Made by a program: the position numbers and the translations under genes. Shown here piece by piece: positions 5,975 to 63,368 of a stretch of 64,000 nucleotides of DNA. The stretch's first letter is position 1, and each line of letters starts with the position of its first letter. The DNA comes from an uncultured Planctomycetaceae bacterium (lineage in GTDB: Bacteria; Planctomycetota; Planctomycetia; Pirellulales; Lacipirellulaceae): positions 1 through 64,000 of the forward strand of contig CAZYQQ010000010.1 in the NCBI GenBank assembly GCA_964650265.1. Reading direction: 5' to 3'. Below the pieces are notes generated by a model, which saw only the letters and a program-made list of their open reading frames with translations, ran no database searches and was not told the origin of the DNA.

Positions 5975-6154
5975 TTGTTTGGAGAGGTTGGGGGGTGGGG
6001 GGAGGTCAGAGGTGAGAGAGCGGAGGTCAGAGAGCGGGTTTTCAGGAGAGGATTTTATAGATGGTCTTGAATCGCGAGCAAAGGTTGCTGGGGGGTGTGG
6101 GCGGGGGGTAGGATGGAGTGGGTGCGTGGCTAACAGGTCATTAGGGGCCGCTAT

Positions 6155-6796
6155 TTGTCAGGCTATGAGAGTCCGATGTCCCATCTCGGTCGGTATGCCA
6201 AATATCTGGTTCCTTCGTCGGTCGGCGAAAAGAGGCTAGAGGTTCTGGAAAGCTTTTCGACCCTCGGATACTGGAAGTATGTACTTGTCGAGTGGAACCA
6301 GGCCGTCGTCGGCATTGGACTCTTTTCAACTGCATTGATCGCGCTCGGAGGCGTAAACCTGCTCCGCTTCTTTTGGGCTTTCCCCGCTCTGGTACTCGGA
6401 TTCGTCTTCTATTTTTCGATAGTCTCTGCAATTCGATGCGGATGGATGTTGTTAGTGCGGCGGCGTTTGATTTACACCACTGATAGGCAATTGTACTTGA
6501 CGAACTGCCTGACTTTTCAGAAATTGTCGGTTAATACTTGTCGATTGGCGAGTATGGCGGGTGACGACTTCGATCGCAGGGAACGGCTGTCCATGGGATT
6601 GCATCGCGAGCAGTGTTACTATGTGCTCGAGTTCCGGAAGGAGTGGCTGCGTCTGAAGTTCATCGAACAGAGACCGTTCGTGCTCGGAAAAGTCGGGGAG
6701 CTGGAATTTCCAGTATTGGCGTTTCTCCACGATTGCGAGCTACTCGCGGAACTCGTCGATTGGCGATCGCCGAATGAGATGGTGATGACTGCTTGA
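6155..6796 (+). CDS. Membrane protein with two TM helices followed by a soluble domain. It may be a bacterial PH-like (YdbS-type) architecture.
   Basis: The TM pair is VVGIGLFSTALIALGGVNLL / FPALVLGFVFYFSIV, followed by about 120 soluble residues. Local GC is lower. Confidence 0.4.
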   Translation: MSGYESPMSHLGRYAKYLVPSSVGEKRLEVLESFSTLGYWKYVLVEWNQAVVGIGLFSTALIALGGVNLLRFFWAFPALVLGFVFYFSIVSAIRCGWMLLVRRRLIYTTDRQLYLTNCLTFQKLSVNTCRLASMAGDDFDRRERLSMGLHREQCYYVLEFRKEWLRLKFIEQRPFVLGKVGELEFPVLAFLHDCELLAELVDWRSPNEMVMTA

Positions 6797-13466: not shown

Positions 13467-13522
13467 GCGGAGAGGGGGCAGAGGTCAGGGGTCAGGTTTC
13501 AGGTGTCAGGGACAAGAACGTC
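13467..13522. repeat. TCAGG-rich element (AGCGGAGAGGGGGCAGAGGTCAGGGGTCAGGTTTCAGGTGTCAGGGACAAG) lying between the 25-bp direct repeats.
   Basis: Related to 395-440. Flanked by the duplicated lepB gene end. Confidence 0.5.
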
Positions 13523-45394: not shown

Positions 45395-45438
45395 AAGGGC
45401 CCCCTTCGATGCGTCGGAGTGGGGCCCTTCGCTTTTTG
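45395..45438 (+). terminator. Terminator-like hairpin AAGGGCCCCC..GGGGCCCTT followed by CGCTTTTTGG.
   Basis: Read directly. No annotated plus-strand gene lies upstream. It could be a small-RNA 3' end. Confidence 0.35.
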
Positions 45439-45486
45439 GAAGTTGGAAGTTGGAAGTTGGAAGTTGGAAGTTGGAAGTTGGAAGTT
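45438..45486. repeat. Seven perfect tandem copies of the heptamer GGAAGTT.
   Basis: (GGAAGTT)x7 directly after the hairpin. The 7-bp unit is not a multiple of three. It lies intergenic, 3' of the HTH gene. Confidence 0.9.
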
Positions 45487-45631
45487 GGAAACGCGTGCCG
45501 CGTTTCCCCTGACCTCTGGCCCCTGACCCCTTTTTTGGGTGTTTTGAGAAATCGATTTCCGCCAAACAATTCGCGCTTTTCTTGCCGTCTCGCGGGGGGT
45601 GAGGCTGTCATGCGAGGGATTTGCGAGCCAG

Positions 45632-46558: not shown

Positions 46559-47524
46559 GGCAGGGGTTCTCCGGTAGATTGGAAAGGAAAGGGAAGAACA
46601 GGGGTACCCGGCGGTAGAGATACACCGGTACACCAAAAATCCAAGCTACCGGGCGGGGTGCCCGATTTCGACAAGAAAGTGGGGAGAAAGTGGGAAATCG
46701 CGTGGGGGAAGGGGATTTCAGAGATTTTTAGTGTGGCGCGACCGTTTCGGTCGCGAAGATTGGAGTCGCATCGAAGTACCCCTTTTTGCTATCTTACCAG
46801 CTTTAGTCATGCCAGCCCGCAAGGATGCGTCTGAGTTCATGCTACACCATCGCGAACTTTCCAAGCCGCATCTTCGACTACTTCGAGTTTACCGCCGAAA
46901 TCGAGAAGATTCGCGAGTCGAACATCCTCTACCTGATCGTCTCCAAGTTTGCTGACGTTGACTTGAGCCGTATGCTGACAGGTACCTAGGGCTCCAGAAG
47001 CGAAATGGCGGGTTTGCAATGCTTCCATTCACAACCAAGAACAAGTATTCGCGCTAGATTGGGTTCCGGTATCTGATTGTTCGACTGATTTGCGCATCGA
47101 ACTCCTCGATTATGTCGATGCACTTCTTAAATCGCTTGTCGTCTCAAATGAAGAGTATGTCCCTGAATTAGAGCAAGCGGTGGCAAAGGCCCACCGAGTG
47201 CTTGAGAGCCTTGGAATTACCAAGGCCAAGTAGTGCTTCGAACTTCTCTCGCACTCAATTCAGTAGTCCCTCGATGGAACATTTTATTCCAGCGGTAATG
47301 ACGGTCATCATGGCTATTGGGGTGTGGATTCAGTATTGGAGCTACCGCGATCAACACAAAGCTCCACCACCGCCACCCGACGAGACACGCAGTAACTGAG
47401 TCGACCGCGCCCGGCGACCCTATGTCAGGCTTCCGCAAAGTTGCTCCATCCCTAATAATGGTGCCACCTCCACGGATCAGGAGGTCAATTGCATCAATAA
47501 ACGCTGAGTCGTGGGCACCGCGAT

Positions 47525-53076: not shown

Positions 53077-53160
53077 GAAAAAGGTGTCAGGAACCTTTTT
53101 CTTATGTGCATGCCTCACTGCAAAGCGATTTGCTGAAAAAAGGTTCCTGACACCTTTTTC
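53077..53160. repeat. 85-bp paired-palindrome element. Two inverted copies of AAAAAGGTGTCAGGAACCTTTTT are separated by a 33-nt spacer containing GCAAAGCGAT. A second family member is at 58806-58880.
   Basis: Exact reverse-complement arms, read directly. Each 23-bp arm is itself an 8-7-8 palindrome (AAAAAGGT..ACCTTTTT). It lies in the divergent dtxR/hydrolase promoter region, 15 nt upstream of the dtxR start. Confidence 0.7.
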
Positions 53161-53269
53161 GTTCGCCCGATGGGTTGCCTGCCTCGCTGGCGACCCTGTA
53201 CCCTAGTCTAGCCGACGCCCCCACGGCTGAGAACGACACCTCCCGCAGCTCGCCCGCGATCCACACGGC

Positions 53270-54178
53270 ATGACAACATCTGACTGGCGAGCCCTCTACC
53301 CGTTCGACTCGATTTGGCACCAGCTCCCCGCCGGGCGGATGCACTACATCGATCGGGGAGGGGTCGACCAAGGCGCCCAGCACGGCGATCGGGGGACGCT
53401 GCTGTTCGTTCACGGCAATCCGACCTGGTCGTTTCATTGGCGGCGACTCGTCGCCGCGTTCGAGGGTCGCTATCGCTGCGTGGCCGTCGACCATCTCGGT
53501 TGCGGGCTCAGCGACAAGCCGCCGCAAGCGTTCCGCCTGGCCGACCACATCGCGCACCTCGTCTCGCTGGTCGATGCCCTGAAGCTCGACCGGGTCACCT
53601 TGGTAGCCCAGGACTGGGGTGGAGCAATCGGCCTGGGGGCGCTGCTCCAGCGGCCGGAGCGATTCGAACGGATCGTCCTGTTCAACACCGGGGCATTTCC
53701 CCCTTGGTTCATCCCCTGGCGAATCGCCCTCTGCCGGGTGCCCGTCGTGGGACGCATCGCCGTGCAGGGGGGGAATGCCTTCGCCCGGGCGGCCCTGCGG
53801 ATGACCTTGAACCGCCGGCGGCGGCTCGACCGAGCGGTCGAGGCAGGTTGCCTCGCCCCCTACGACAGTTGGGACCACCGCCGGCAGATTTACGAATTCG
53901 TGGCCGACATCCCGATGAACGAGCGTCACCCGACCTGGGAGACATTGGCCACAATCGAACGAGGGCTGCCGACCCTGGCCCCTCTGCCCAAGCTGCTGGT
54001 TTGGGGAATGAAGGACTGGTGCTTCCGCCCCGATTGCCTGGAGAAGTTCGTCGGCTACTGGCCCGAGGCGGAGGTCCATCGGCTGGAGGATGTGGGGCAC
54101 TGGGTGGTGGAGGATGCGCCGGAGGAGGCGCTCACCTTGGTCGAGCAGTTTCTTGAGCGGACAGTCGCCCCGTCGTGA
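53270..54178 (+). CDS. Alpha/beta-fold hydrolase (haloalkane-dehalogenase-like).
   Basis: HGNPTWSFHWRRL and the nucleophile elbow VAQDWGGAIG, with a catalytic His near the C-terminus (VGHWVVEDAPE). Confidence 0.8.
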   Translation: MTTSDWRALYPFDSIWHQLPAGRMHYIDRGGVDQGAQHGDRGTLLFVHGNPTWSFHWRRLVAAFEGRYRCVAVDHLGCGLSDKPPQAFRLADHIAHLVSLVDALKLDRVTLVAQDWGGAIGLGALLQRPERFERIVLFNTGAFPPWFIPWRIALCRVPVVGRIAVQGGNAFARAALRMTLNRRRRLDRAVEAGCLAPYDSWDHRRQIYEFVADIPMNERHPTWETLATIERGLPTLAPLPKLLVWGMKDWCFRPDCLEKFVGYWPEAEVHRLEDVGHWVVEDAPEEALTLVEQFLERTVAPS

Positions 54179-54260
54179 GATTTCCCGAAACGATGGGACA
54201 CGGATGAACACTGGTTGTTCGGGTCACCACGGATCGGAAAGCATGCTTTAGGGGGGCACG

Positions 54261-54675
54261 CTTTGAGAAGGGGGCTTGGTTGGTGGGAAGAATGGGACGG
54301 GGATTTACCGGATTGGACAGGATTGCCAGGATCAGACCCAATCGGGCGCGCAAGAAAATCCGAGCCGGGGACGTGAGTCCCCGGAGTAGGTGCATAAAAA
54401 AATAGGCCACGGATTAAAGCGGATCGTTCGGGTCACCACGGATCAGACAGAACAGGGCATTTGGGGCGCCCCTGTGAAAGGTGTGCGCTTTCTGATCCGT
54501 GGTGATCTGTCGCATCCGTTTCAATCCGTGGCCTATTTTTTCACGCTCCTCCGGGGCTGACACCACCCGGCTCAGGTTTTTGCTGTCCCTCCCGCTCAGT
54601 CTGATCCTGCCAATCCTGCCAGATCCTGAAAATCCGCGTCCCATTCTTCCCACCAACCAAGCCCCCTTCTCAAAG
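54261..54675. repeat. About 415-bp nested foldback (palindromic) element. The outer perfect 39-bp inverted repeats are 54261-54299 and 54637-54675. There is an inner imperfect IR (54396-54452 and 54489-54544) and a central GGGGCGCCCC palindrome.
   Basis: Reverse-complement relationships verified by eye along the whole length. Direct repeats of GTTCGGGTCACCACGGATC occur at 54218 and 54426. It lies intergenic between the hydrolase and purE. Confidence 0.65.
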
Positions 54676-54781
54676 TGGGTCGCGGAATTGGTCCGGTTGA
54701 CAACCTCCCGTCCGGCGGTCGATTATTGAGCTTTCCCCGCTGTTCGTTCCGACTCCGTCACCACTCGCCCTGCGTAAGCCG

Positions 54782-55279
54782 ATGACCCCCAACAAACAGC
54801 CCCTGGTGGGCATCATCATGGGCTCCTCGAGCGATTGGGAAACCATGGCCCAGGCGGTCGAAGTGCTACAGGAGTTTGGCGTACCGTACGAAGCCAAGGT
54901 CGTCTCGGCCCATCGCACCCCGCAGGACATGTTCGACTACGCCAAGGAAGCCGAACAGCGGGGGCTCGAAGTCATCATCGCGGGCGCCGGCGGCGCGGCC
55001 CATCTGCCGGGGATGGTCGCTTCGCTCACGGTGCTCCCCGTGCTTGGTGTGCCGGTGCAGAGCCGGGCCCTCAGCGGGCTCGACTCGCTCCTCTCCATTG
55101 TCCAGATGCCGGGTGGAATTCCCGTCGGCACGCTCGCCATCGGCGCGGCTGGCGCGCGGAATGCGGGACTTTTGGCCGTGCGAATCCTTGCCACCTCGCG
55201 CGAGGAACTGCGACAACGACTCCGCAGCTTCAGCGAGGCGCAAGCCGCCTCGGTCCGCTCGCAGACGTTGCCGGAGTAA
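54782..55279 (+). CDS. purE: N5-carboxyaminoimidazole ribonucleotide mutase.
   Basis: [33 protein letters not shown] canonical PurE. Confidence 0.9.
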
Positions 55280-56458: not shown

Positions 56459-56635
56459 GAAGCGAAATAGCCCCGTCCCAAGGATTTCAACACGGAGGCA
56501 CTGAGACACGGAGATCAACGAGCGGGTTTTGCAGCGAATCCTATCTCTTGGTTTTTTGAAATAACTCAACATCAACGCACACGCCAACCCGCCAATAACA
56601 TCTCCGTGCCTCTGTGTCTCCGTGTTTTTTATCCA
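56459..56635. mobile_element. MITE-like repeat element of about 177 bp, flanked by a 12-bp direct duplication CTTCAGCCAACT. An inverted homologue is at about 60295-60484.
   Basis: Direct repeats at 56447-56458 and 56636-56647. Internal inverted ACACGGAG-rich ends. The body aligns in reverse complement to the element upstream of the DUF1501 gene. Confidence 0.55.
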
Positions 56636-57022
56636 CTTCAGCCAACTCAGTCGGCTGAAAAGTTACGCCACTGTAAATAGAAAGCCGCTCCAACCAGTTT
56701 GACCGATTGGAGCGGCAAAGAGCAATCTCGCCTAATGAAGTCGACGGTACGCACCGACGCCGATCAAGCCGAGCACCGACCAGACCACGATCGTTGTCGC
56801 CTCGGGCACCGGGGCCGGAGTGAAGACCACACTAATGATCAGGTCGTCATGATTGTCGTCAAAGTTGGCTCCATTGTCGTCATAACCGAAGTACAGTCGA
56901 TTCGCATCATGCCCATTACCTGGTCCTACAAAGATTCCAAATTGATCGCTGCCAGGACCATGCACACCCGCAGGAACGGTAGTAGCGCCATCAACGCCCC
57001 CCCCAGTGAAAAACTCAACCAC

Positions 57023-57166
57023 GACAATCCCAGACACGCAACATTGGCGTTGCTGTCAGATCGAATTAAATCGTTGCGACAGTTGGTGTTGCGCTGCCCG
57101 GTCTGATTTAGCGCGCCACTGCGGCTCGGGATGAAAGGTTGACTGTCTGCGTTTGGGCCGTGGGAC
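57023..57166. repeat. About 140-bp direct repeat, copy 1 (GACAATCCCAGACACGCAACATTGGCG..GATGAAAGGTTGACTGTCTGCGTTTGG). Copy 2 is at 58373-58530.
   Basis: About 95% identity, read directly. The two copies bracket the SUKH-1 gene. Confidence 0.75.
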
Positions 57167-57421
57167 GATTTTCTAAATCGTCGGCGGTGCCAGCCGACGT
57201 AGCGATCAAGAAGAAGGAGGTCGGGGGGATGTTCGTGGAGGTCAGCCAAGGGGGCGTGTTTTGAATTGGCTTGTAAGGATCACGAAAACGCGAAAGATCG
57301 AAAGCTCCGATCGAGTCCGTGTGCCACGCAACGCGGGACCAACACCAAGGAACTTTCGTGTTTTCGTGCTTTCGTATTCGTTGCAATCCATGTGAAGGCT
57401 GAGTGCCTCGGATTGCGTCAA

Positions 57422-57895
57422 TCAATTGTGAGTAGTATCAATGCGGCTCGCAAGCCACGCATCGAATGCATAGCTTGTTAGTTCACCGACATCTAATTCA
57501 TCCCAGCATTTTGGCATTTCAGGGACTAGGACGATTTCAGCGTCGTGTTCACTATCCATTTTCAGTAGCAACAACTGCCCTGTCTCACGGTCCCTGCCGA
57601 TAGGTATGTACTTTGAAAAGACGTCGTGCTGCTTTTGCCTAGACCAGGAAGCTACTATATCAAGCATGTCATCAATGCGGCGTAGCTCCAGGCCAACTTG
57701 ACAGTCGCCTAGCGTTGAGAAATAAACGCCGGAGCCGAGTTCACGCAAAAATTCCCTATAAAATCCTGGCAACTTGATCGACCGCTTCTTTTCGATTGCA
57801 AGCAATTCTTCTTCATTGAACTGCTTTTCAACGCCACACCACCCTCGTTCTCTCGTTTGAACACGAGACTTATCGGTTTTTGATCGCTCAACCAT
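57422..57895 (-). CDS. SMI1/KNR4 (SUKH-1) family protein, an immunity-type protein of polymorphic toxin systems, in a low-GC (about 45%) segment.
   Basis: ..EEELLAIEKKRSIKLPGFYREFLRELGSGVYF.. fits the SUKH-1 LP..Y..FL..G pattern. No toxin gene is adjacent. The start was chosen at an internal Met; the track ORF extends to 58075. Confidence 0.6.
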   Translation of the reverse strand: MVERSKTDKSRVQTRERGWCGVEKQFNEEELLAIEKKRSIKLPGFYREFLRELGSGVYFSTLGDCQVGLELRRIDDMLDIVASWSRQKQHDVFSKYIPIGRDRETGQLLLLKMDSEHDAEIVLVPEMPKCWDELDVGELTSYAFDAWLASRIDTTHN

Positions 57896-58372
57896 TCGGC
57901 GGATACTGGATAGTATATGGTGTGACATTTGACGTGGTGAGTTCCTACAGGTCGAAGATGATTTCAAATGGCTCGTTGTTCCTAGCAACTTTCTTGCCGC
58001 TAATGACAAGGGTGCGTGAAGTGAAACGCACCAAATGGCGCCGTACCCCAATCGGTGCGTTCCGCTCCGCTTCACGCACGCTACGGTACTTTCGATCTTT
58101 CGTGATCCTGATAAGCCAATTCAAGACACGAAACCTTGGCTGCCCGCCACGGCCATCCCCCCATCCCACAACATCCCCCGCATCTCCTTTTGGAAACGCC
58201 CCGCTTCGGTGACTCACGTCACCGGCTCAGTGTTGGGACAAAACCAGACACTCCGCTTTCCCCACCCGTCAATATATCAAATTGTCCCCCACCGCCAATC
58301 TTCCTCAAACAAGAGGGGGGGACAATCCCAGACAGGGGGGACAATCCCAGACACGCAACATTCGACAATCCC

Positions 58373-58530
58373 GACAATCCCAGACACGCAACATTGGCGT
58401 TGCTGTCGGATGGAAGTAAATCGTTGCGACAGTTGGTGTTGCGCTGCCCGGTCTGATTTAGCGCGGCCGCCGTGGCACGGGATGAAAGGTTGACTGTCTG
58501 CGTTTGGTGCGTTTGGGCCGTGCGTTTGGG
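58373..58530. repeat. About 140-bp direct repeat, copy 2. It carries extra tandem partial copies of GACAATCCCAGACA upstream and GTTTGGGCCGTGC downstream.
   Basis: Read directly. Confidence 0.75.
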
Positions 58531-58534
58531 CCGA

Positions 58535-58588: not shown

Positions 58589-58805
58589 CACCTCTCTTTC
58601 GTGCTGTTAACGCGGCATGCTCCGGGGCCTCACGGCCCCAGCTCTGAAGTGCGGATGAGAGAGGGGGGGACAACCCCTTCAAGCGGGTGACTGAAGTCGG
58701 CGGGTGGACCGGGGAGTGGGGCCCTGGGTCTCAAGCACGAAGTTCCTGGTCGTGCAATCGCCGACATCCCGCAAGAGTGGTTGTCCCCCCAGGCACAGTA
58801 CGAAG

Positions 58806-58880
58806 GAGAAAAAGGTGTCAGGACCCTTTTGCTGCAAGCTAAGCGATGGGGTCGAAAAAAGGGTCCTGACACCTTTTTCT
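58806..58880. repeat. Paired-palindrome element, second family member (arms AAAAAGGTGTCAGGACCCTTTT, spacer with GCAAGCTAAGCGAT). It lies just 3' of the DUF1501 gene.
   Basis: Same architecture as 53077-53160. It could also act as that gene's terminator. Confidence 0.65.
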
Positions 58881-58887
58881 CTTTTTC

Positions 58888-60294: not shown

Positions 60295-60484
60295 AAAAAA
60301 CCACAGAGCACACGGAGCGACACGGAGGAAGGGAGAATAACGCGGAGACGCAGAGACACGGAGATGTTATTGGCGGGGCGGAGCAAGTCCTGTCGCCTGA
60401 GTTATTGAAATAATGAAGGGGACGATTCGATTCAAAACCCGCTCGTTGATCTCCGTGTCTCTGCGTCTCTGTGTTGAAATCCTT
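60295..60484. mobile_element. MITE-like element, inverted homologue of 56459-56635, carrying extra CACGGAG-type internal repeats.
   Basis: The ends ATAAAAAAC.. and ..GTTGAAATCCTTG, and the core CACGGAGATGTTATTGGCGG / CAAAACCCGCTCGTTGATCTCCGTGTCTC, match the reverse complement of the 56.5-kb element. Confidence 0.55.
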
Positions 60485-60521
60485 GCGCCTCGCAGTAGGT
60501 GCATTGGTATTGAAGTATTAC

Positions 60522-63167: not shown

Positions 63168-63368
63168 CGTAGTCGTGACACCGTGCAGGGAATTGGAGAG
63201 GAATCGGGTAAGTCGAGCGACAGTTGAACTTCCATCGTAGGGTAGGCTTCCAGCCTGCCATTTGTTGAAAAACTCGGCAGGCTGGAAGCCTACCCCACGA
63301 GGATTTGCAGGTAAGTTCTCATCTGTTGTTCGCCTAGGAATATGTCGTACGGTCGCGCCAGTTTGTCG

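Follow-up and report, generated by a model that had tools for sequence, protein, structure and literature searches.

The stretch of DNA analysed here, hereafter the window, covers 64,000 nucleotides of an uncultured Planctomycetaceae bacterium (assembly GCA_964650265.1, contig CAZYQQ010000010.1). Our subject is a near-complete palindrome of 415 bp (54261-54675) that lies between a gene for an alpha/beta-fold hydrolase of 302 amino acids (53270-54178, plus strand; Pfam Abhydrolase_1 at 2.5e-32) and purE, a member of the AIR carboxylase family (54782-55279, plus strand; Pfam AIRC at 7.7e-67). purK follows purE directly, and Pfam detects the ATP-grasp and PurK_C domains in that open reading frame. 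Comparison of the hydrolase-to-purE gap with that of relatives delimits an inserted block of ~500 bp (54179-54675), which comprises a solo repeat unit, a spacer, and the palindrome. Downstream of the insertion, a promoter-like site for purE, TTGACA-N18-GATTAT (54697-54726, plus strand), is intact, with the same hexamers and spacing in the relatives L002 and L006. Homologues of the hydrolase place the host in the Pirellulales, near the Lacipirellulaceae genera Aeoliella, Lacipirellula, and Bythopirellula.

No other palindrome in 583 kb of this bacterial family's DNA is as large; the runner-up measures 121 bp. Its terminal inverted repeats (TIRs) are perfect over 39 bp, as the original prediction for this locus had claimed: the left tip (54261-54299, plus strand) is the exact complement of the right tip (54637-54675, minus strand), and the first arm mismatch falls at 54300. 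A 38-nt pattern taken from 54261 matches exactly at 54261-54298 (plus) and 54638-54675 (minus), where the chance expectation is 0. Over the full 77 nt of the outer arms complementarity is 91%. The imperfect inverted repeats that had been described inside them are present as inner arms at 54388-54450 and 54488-54550 (63 nt, 81% complementary), and the central palindrome, GGGGCGCCCC (54463-54472), sits on the geometric centre, inside a 37-nt centre at 54451-54487. When the interval is aligned globally to its reverse complement, Watson-Crick pairs form at 170 of 198 aligned positions and 19 nt stay unaligned; nearly the whole interval can indeed pair with itself. RNA folding agrees, with a single long hairpin as the fold of either strand and minimum free energies of -320 kcal/mol for the plus strand (z -17.7) and -313 kcal/mol for the minus strand (z -18.7). 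The DNA fold of the interval reaches -159 kcal/mol (z -20.3).

The arms differ at 28 positions, of which 5 would be G-U pairs on the plus strand and 7 on the minus strand, the remaining 16 being of other kinds. There is no G-U (wobble) bias among these mismatches on either strand, and they bear no sign of single-strand selection for RNA pairing. Sub-segments had also been reported to recur inside and just outside the element; the 19-mer GTTCGGGTCACCACGGATC does so, with one exact copy at 54217, beyond the palindrome, one at 54426, within it, and no others (0.05 expected). We rule out an assembly artefact because the arms are imperfect and because the left junction is also present in L001, an independent Logan contig from the same sample. 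That contig breaks 30 nt into the tip, as expected if the Logan graph has k = 31, which is our assumption.

We identify five homologous units, ~55-60 nt each, as the constituents of the inserted block. Alignment of conserved blocks unites the block that stands alone with the cores of both outer arms and with both inner arms; the five are oriented > > > < < and 51-84% identical in pairwise comparison, and the layers of the foldback are paralogous copies of one unit. Unit 1 (54185-54244, plus strand; nhmmer E 1.3e-15) starts 7 nt past the hydrolase stop codon and stands alone, without an adjacent inverted partner. A variable spacer and the outermost tip of the left arm follow (54245-54282); this segment is unalignable with the relative L005 and holds a local direct repeat (CTTTAGGGGGGCAC / CTTTGAGAAGGGGGCTT). 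Unit 2 (54283-54344, plus strand) is the core of the outer left arm and unit 5 (54595-54653, minus strand) that of the outer right arm. The inner arms are formed by unit 3 on the left (54395-54454, plus strand), which begins with A7 (54396-54402), and by unit 4 on the right (54485-54545, minus strand), whose plus-strand end is GGCCTATTTTTT, with T6 at 54536-54541.

Read along the unit consensus, AA.AAT.GGAC.CGGAT..AC..G..T.G....GGAT..CCA.GGATCAGA, each copy has a head that is rich in A (AAT-GG-C-CGGAT), then four cores that are GGAT or similar to it, and finally a tail, CA-GGATCAGA. When the five units of the window and two of L005 are aligned to one consensus, the head, GGAT, and tail columns are invariant, and an nhmmer profile built from these seven units finds every one of them with E-values between 1e-13 and 1e-15. 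Relatedness across unit types is weaker (the U model on B units gives E 0.09-0.78). Spacing of the cores is regular in all five units, at 9-10-9 or 10-10-9 nt; in unit 2 they lie at 54301, 54310, 54320, and 54329, and in unit 5 they read as ATCC on the plus strand at 54604, 54613, 54623, and 54632. GGAT is ~4-fold enriched in the element, whose left half has 9 motifs on the plus strand and whose right half has 8 on the minus strand. Chains of at least four GGAT cores, 8-12 nt apart, are confined to both arms of the 54261-54675 element and one foldback of L030, and chains of at least three number 8 across the 583 kb, against 1.4 in shuffles. Two candidate motif clusters were dropped: a DnaA-box cluster, whose motif does not fit TGTGGATAA, and a Dam/GATC cluster, GATC enrichment being only about 2.3-fold.

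Units 2 and 5 and units 3 and 4 pair as the two layers of a two-storey hairpin, and the segments between the layers are still weakly palindromic. Unit 1 is unpaired; it is 71% complementary to unit 4 and could compete there with unit 3. On their own the units fold weakly and without conservation (-8 to -22 kcal/mol), and unit 1 shows no covariation between the window and L005. The inner hairpin (54396-54541) consists of A7, an imperfect stem of ~63 nt whose base is perfect over 13 bp (TAGGCCACGGATT/AATCCGTGGCCTA), and T6, a composition that looks like a bidirectional intrinsic terminator. Its stem and loop lengths fall outside canonical terminator models, and the consensus scanner does not score stems this long.

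Between the layers there is also a mini hairpin, GAGCCGGGGAC-GTGA-GTCCCCGGAG, with a GNRA-type loop (54362-54386, plus strand) and a degenerate mirror copy at 54549-54573 (minus strand). It belongs to a family of the form GAGC(C/T)GG-stem-GTGA-stem-CCG(G/A)AG, with further members in the window at 58620-58644 and 58204-58228, both on the minus strand. The stems of the three covary (GGGGAC/GTCCCC, GGGGCC/GGCCCC, and GGTGAC/GTCACC). Assignment of the mini hairpin to the Rfam family Acido-Lenti-1 was rejected, its 22 bits being not significant against a gathering score of 37.

Close relatives in the protein collection number only five, at 79-83% amino-acid identity. Comparison with them reveals the empty sites that an insertion would predict: between hydrolase and purE the window has 603 nt, L002 has 46 nt, and L006 has 88 nt, and the hydrolase gene of L002 extends at its end across the purE promoter. 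Because both sites are empty, we conclude that the ~500 bp at 54179-54675 are an insertion in the lineage of the window. The C-terminus of the hydrolase differs from those of its relatives, and the 3′ end of the gene is apparently remodelled by the insertion. In L005 (82-83% hydrolase identity) the site is occupied and the left boundary is identical, the stop codon being followed by GA..CCG.AACGATGGGACACG. A copy of unit 1, an unalignable spacer of similar length, and a copy of the outer-arm core come next, and the contig stops there, before the inner layers. In a neighbour-joining tree of the hydrolase the window and L005 are sisters, in a weak grouping, with L002 and L006 as the neighbouring clade. 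A single acquisition in the ancestor of the window and L005 would fit, since the two share the left boundary and the order unit 1, spacer, unit 2, and are sisters in the tree.

In this clade the interval between the hydrolase gene and purE is a place where repeats gather. Past the hydrolase gene of L007, in the same intergenic spot, there are hairpin repeats with a GTAG tag, and three GTAGCACGGGCAATCT... units lie there directly past the hydrolase stop codon. In L090 and L091, 22-nt tandem repeats (TCTTTCCCCCCCTCGCTGAACA) stand immediately before purE (positions 1-90), and the contigs end within the array. Among the homologues of purE the closest is at 93%, and the next one has unrelated 22-nt tandem repeats upstream.

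Conservation of the units exceeds that of the neighbouring gene at its freest positions. Unit 1 is 83-86% identical to its L005 orthologue, and unit 2 is 80% identical over the whole unit and 90% in its core block. Four-fold degenerate sites of the hydrolase are identical between the window and L005 in 54% of cases (136 sites), which is essentially saturated; against this value the 86% and 90% identity of the unit blocks gives binomial P values of 4e-7 and 7e-9. Because the units have stayed this similar while four-fold sites are saturated and the spacer is unalignable, their sequences are either under constraint or kept alike by a homogenising process. The perfect tips behave otherwise, their outermost 18 nt being not conserved in L005 while the interior units are. 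A perfect run of 39 nt in arms that are otherwise ~82% alike is modestly unexpected (estimate about 0.02-0.07), and recent arm-to-arm copying would fit the tips better than a conserved transposase end.

The open reading frames across the element are artefacts, as had been suspected. They have no Pfam match, substitutions relative to L005 show no codon periodicity, and the short frames are interrupted by L005 stop codons, and coding potential was rejected on these grounds. Neither gathering-threshold nor permissive Rfam searches returned any family at its gathering score. Matches below threshold are generic hairpins, namely plant microRNA models, Acido-Lenti-1 (22 vs 37 bits), and CsrC (10 bits, E 1.7). 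With no Rfam family at threshold and with arm mismatches that lack G-U bias, the large structured RNA that the original prediction had entertained is unsupported.

No second copy of the unit or of the arms lies within the 64-kb window, an absence that argues only against a high-copy family. Across 520 kb from 80 related genomes and clade contigs there is likewise no other copy except for weak matches to the unit profile, in both arms of the L030 foldback (E 0.003 and 0.012) and once in L063 (E 0.011). The pairwise score of the L030 foldback against the element stands at a z of only about 2.7 over shuffles, and the L030 and L063 matches may be distant relatives or merely structures of the same repeat style. 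The L030 foldback (6586-6781) comes from a different genus, where it lies behind fliG; it too has two storeys, and its outer arms (GGCCGCGGATGAACGCGGAT), with four phased GGAT cores, enclose a 94-bp palindrome. Scans with an arm-core pattern gave 0 matches in GTDB genomes and 0 in viral contigs, and the 2 matches in JGI metagenomes were set aside as chance, both lying within protein-coding sequence (LRWEELDEDITV). The whole element had no blastn match among PLSDB plasmids or INPHARED phages. Its six-frame peptides matched nothing at E <= 1 among 5.8 billion predicted proteins, a weak negative because the genome's own local reading frames are outside that collection. As background only, none of 80 GTDB loci with hydrolase homologues had an adjacent purE and none of the 80 had similar DNA.

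We propose, with moderate confidence, that the element is a non-coding cluster, specific to its lineage, in which a ~55-nt repeat is present in five diverged copies, that it is comparable to the bacterial interspersed mosaic elements (BIMEs) and to the inverted doublets (REPINs) that repetitive extragenic palindromes (REPs) form, and that its inner hairpin acts as a terminator or insulator. The block would have been acquired once, in the common ancestor of the host and L005, between the hydrolase 3′ end and the purE promoter. Later local growth or homogenisation, through inverted duplication or arm-to-arm copying, would have shaped it further, with the perfect 39-bp tips as the latest such event. 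Pairing of units 2 and 5 and of units 3 and 4 would then yield a two-storey hairpin or cruciform of 415 bp. Its effect on transcripts would be in cis: read-through RNA from the hydrolase gene would fold into nested hairpins, and the inner hairpin, A7-stem-T6, would halt transcription arriving from either side. That the A7 and T6 tracts abut the 13-bp perfect base of the stem counts in favour of such a terminator-like role. purEK, which has its own promoter, would be insulated, and the 3′ end of the upstream mRNA would be protected. Judged from sequence, the most plausible effect is thus a transcription barrier combined with a 3′-end hairpin between the hydrolase gene and purEK.

As a kind, the element is best read as fairly ordinary, resembling the REP, BIME, and REPIN intergenic repeats of other bacteria; hairpins of this broad sort are frequent among the Pirellulales. 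BIMEs and REPINs are clusters or inverted doublets of REPs, mobilised by RAYT (REP-associated tyrosine transposase) enzymes of the tyrosine/HUH type, and are found in E. coli, Pseudomonas, and Stenotrophomonas, with reports from Rhodopirellula baltica as well (PMC3733652, PMC3116915). For R. baltica, also of the Pirellulales, repeat families of the REP and TIR kinds are reported together with numerous tyrosine-transposase genes, and REPs are reported to lie mainly downstream of coding regions, often paired into larger structures (PMC3733652). Like these repeats, the element is non-coding, intergenic, and mostly past a gene 3′ end; it contains several copies of a short unit, direct and inverted, that form composite hairpins; and it lacks a target-site duplication and is lineage-specific, with empty sites in relatives. 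It differs from them in units of ~55-60 nt instead of 20-40 nt that are not individually palindromic, in a head tag of ATAG/ATGG where a REP unit carries a GTAG or CGTC tetranucleotide at one end (PMC3733652), in its presence at one locus in 64 kb with no RAYT gene to connect it to, and in a 415-bp hairpin several times the length of a REPIN. [quoted passage not shown]

Two other likenesses are partial. Like bidirectional intrinsic terminators, the inner layer lies between two genes and has an A-tract on one side and a T-tract on the other side of a GC-containing stem; it differs in its ~63-nt bulged stem and 37-nt centre, which are far beyond canonical, and in being wrapped in an outer hairpin. 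The long inverted arms of ~10-nt tandem sub-repeats recall the Foldback (FB) transposons of eukaryotes, an analogy only, as these belong to another domain of life, are kilobases long, and are present in many copies. The unit head, ATAGGCCACGGATTAAAGCG, resembles the E. coli REP head GTAGGCC(G/T)GATAAG(A/G)CG, a likeness that we treat as a lead, not a test.

Several observations weigh against the BIME-like, terminator-bearing cluster that we favour. A high-copy REP family would be expected to have a second unit locus in the window, and there is none; ~300 copies in a genome assumed to be ~6.5 Mb would predict about 3 more there. Database scans with the arm core returned nothing genuine. The units are unlike classical REPs in that they are not individually palindromic and carry no GTAG/CGTC tag, and the scanner finds no sigma-70-type promoter inside the element. 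Relatives have no terminator between the hydrolase gene and purE and manage without one, so an insulator role would not be essential. Unit 1, finally, is conserved without an adjacent pairing partner, and pairing alone therefore does not explain the conservation.

That the units, the unpaired one included, are conserved past synonymous saturation hints at recognition by a protein. In a variant that we consider unlikely, the ~55-nt GGAT units would be recognition arrays for a dedicated protein. This could be an HUH/RAYT-like enzyme of planctomycetes whose substrates are very long hairpins, or else an RNA-binding protein of the CsrA type, titrated by transcribed units. In both cases the units would constitute a new REP-like family of the Lacipirellulaceae, in which the sequence itself is selected.

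Other explanations account for parts of this evidence. The element could be a purely local palindrome, an ordinary terminator hairpin of oligomer repeats, enlarged through inverted duplication or a template switch in replication and neither mobile nor functional in itself. Its restriction to a single locus in the window and the related DNA searched would agree with this, as would outer units that in the window are slightly closer to each other (84%) than to their orthologue (78-80%), tips unconserved in L005 that suggest recent arm-to-arm copying, and arm mismatches with the appearance of unfiltered mutation (transition-type in 12 cases, other in 16, without wobble bias). We nevertheless find this rather unlikely, because the units, unpaired unit 1 included, are 83-90% conserved against 54% at four-fold sites and next to an unalignable spacer, and because the arms of the L030 foldback, at another locus and in another genus, weakly match the unit profile (E 0.003 and 0.012). 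The foldback MITE of the original prediction survives in part, in that the element is a layered, non-coding foldback insertion. In its classical form, as a non-autonomous cut-and-paste element whose 39-bp TIRs are recognised by a transposase encoded elsewhere, it would resemble the Correia/NEMIS elements of Neisseria, ERIC/IRU, RUP, and Nezha, with which our element shares TIRs, a length of <600 bp, the absence of coding capacity, an end-to-end fold, an intergenic site, and a possible effect on termination and mRNA processing. The empty sites in close relatives would suit it too, and other hairpin repeats of the clade look mobile, one copy in L005 standing at a non-orthologous site between duplicated TGTAGTCTA motifs. 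Yet there is no target-site duplication at 54260/54676, where the flanks read ...GGGGGGCACG / TGGGTCGCGG... and no direct repeat appears at the boundary offsets tried. The TIR tip is the least conserved part in the L005 orthologue, and this pattern counts against a MITE because a transposase-recognised end should show the opposite. The inserted block begins ~80 nt left of the left repeat, with a related solo unit outside the repeats; no further copy was detected in the window, in the GTDB, JGI, and viral pattern scans, or by plasmid and phage blastn; and no transposase is found among the neighbouring reading frames tested. A classical MITE is improbable on this evidence.

Function at the level of RNA or of protein-bound DNA would place the emphasis on the GGAT cores. 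One or more RNA genes, for example two convergent small RNAs that share the inner hairpin as terminator and titrate a CsrA-type protein through their single-stranded GGAU motifs, would make use of the 9 GGAT on the plus strand of the left half and the 8 on the minus strand of the right half, and a transcript of the left half would leave unit 2 weakly paired. CACGGAUGA fits the CsrA/RsmA consensus, CANGGANG. The faint CsrC match (10 bits, E 1.7), a unit sequence conserved more than pairing requires, and the report of CsrA in Planctomycetes (PMC4682653) point in the same direction. A full-length transcript, however, would bury every GGAU in a stem, no Rfam family reaches threshold, no sigma-70-type promoter is predicted inside the element or at its tips, and a putative -35 region is unconserved in L005; RNA genes are very unlikely here. 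Alternatively, the twenty GGAT cores, direct and inverted with a ~9.7-bp period, might be a platform on which a regulator or nucleoid protein binds DNA upstream of the purE promoter. Regular core spacing in five units, conservation at the level of sequence, and a location 20-500 bp upstream of a conserved promoter would all agree with such an array. Set against it are relatives that have the same promoter and no array, a 9.7-bp period that differs from the helical repeat, and the similar L030 array behind fliG, away from purE. We know of no candidate binding protein for a GGAT array, and regard this explanation as slightly more improbable still.

Palindromic and tandem repeats are frequent in the surroundings of the element. 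Hairpins of 60-120 bp with arms of tandem 7-10-mers are common in the 583 kb of family DNA; in the window several lie just past gene 3′ ends, as a foldback with T6 after purK and as others after DUF1501 and sulfatase genes, and one is located in a divergent promoter region. Two foldbacks of ~150 bp with arms of a CACGGAG-type 8-mer (56479-56629 and 60336-60485) are ~90% alike, in opposite orientation, and 3.7 kb apart. The former comes after the stop codon of purK and has T6 at its end, and the latter lies between the PSD1/DUF1553 and DUF1501 genes. REPIN-like inverted doublets of a 24-nt hairpin unit, GAAAAAGGTGTCAGGAACCTTTTT (the GGTGTCAGGAACC doublet), occur at 53077-53160 and 58803-58884 with differing loops. 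A doublet of this unit in L005 (658-773) occupies a non-orthologous site and is flanked by duplicated TGTAGTCTA (638 and 779), which suggests mobility; the family is clearly multi-copy and probably mobile. GTAG-tagged hairpins of REP type are present in the window at 63243-63292 (GTAGGCTTCCAGCCTGCC...GGCAGGCTGGAAGCCTAC) and in L007 at 1440-1535.

Further repeats of the window are of other types. Inverted repeats of 74 nt (82% complementary; 57223-58162) bracket a low-GC segment (46-51%) that contains a SUKH-1/SMI1-KNR4 immunity-type gene (57422-58075, minus strand) and looks like a small acquired cassette. A direct repeat of ~146 nt (57016-57161 and 58366-58512; 87-95% identical, 1.35 kb apart) flanks the same segment and is adjoined by two perfect tandem repeats, one of 19 nt (58316-58353) and one of 13 nt (58507-58533). 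A 92-nt repeat is present three times at 66-75% identity (14-105, 645-736, and 46628-46719), with the core GGGTGCCCAATTTC...AAGTGG..AAAGTCGAAAATCGCGCC; it has no Rfam match and may be a promoter, leader, or small-RNA motif common to its three sites. Tandem arrays include a perfect intergenic (TTGGAAG) x 7.9 at 45436-45490 and GGTCAGG-type 7-mer arrays at 403-435, 6002-6056, and 13473-13511. Upstream of the hydrolase gene, a conserved non-coding motif, GGGTTGCC...CCTGTAGTCTAGTCGA(A/C)GCC...CTGAGAACGAC...CTCGCC (53160-53269), is found also in L002, L005, L006, and L007. It sits between the hydrolase gene and a divergent gene for a DtxR-family repressor, likely as an operator/promoter region, and the hairpin insertions around it differ by lineage.

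Annotation of the element would avoid false calls of open reading frames, and palindromes of this kind probably disrupt short-read assemblies, since two contigs here end inside the element. It provides a well-characterised palindromic intergenic repeat in a little-studied phylum and an entry to the oligomer-repeat hairpins of the Lacipirellulaceae. Should the units prove to be recognised by a protein, they would offer a way to learn how REP-like repeats arise and are maintained in the Planctomycetota.

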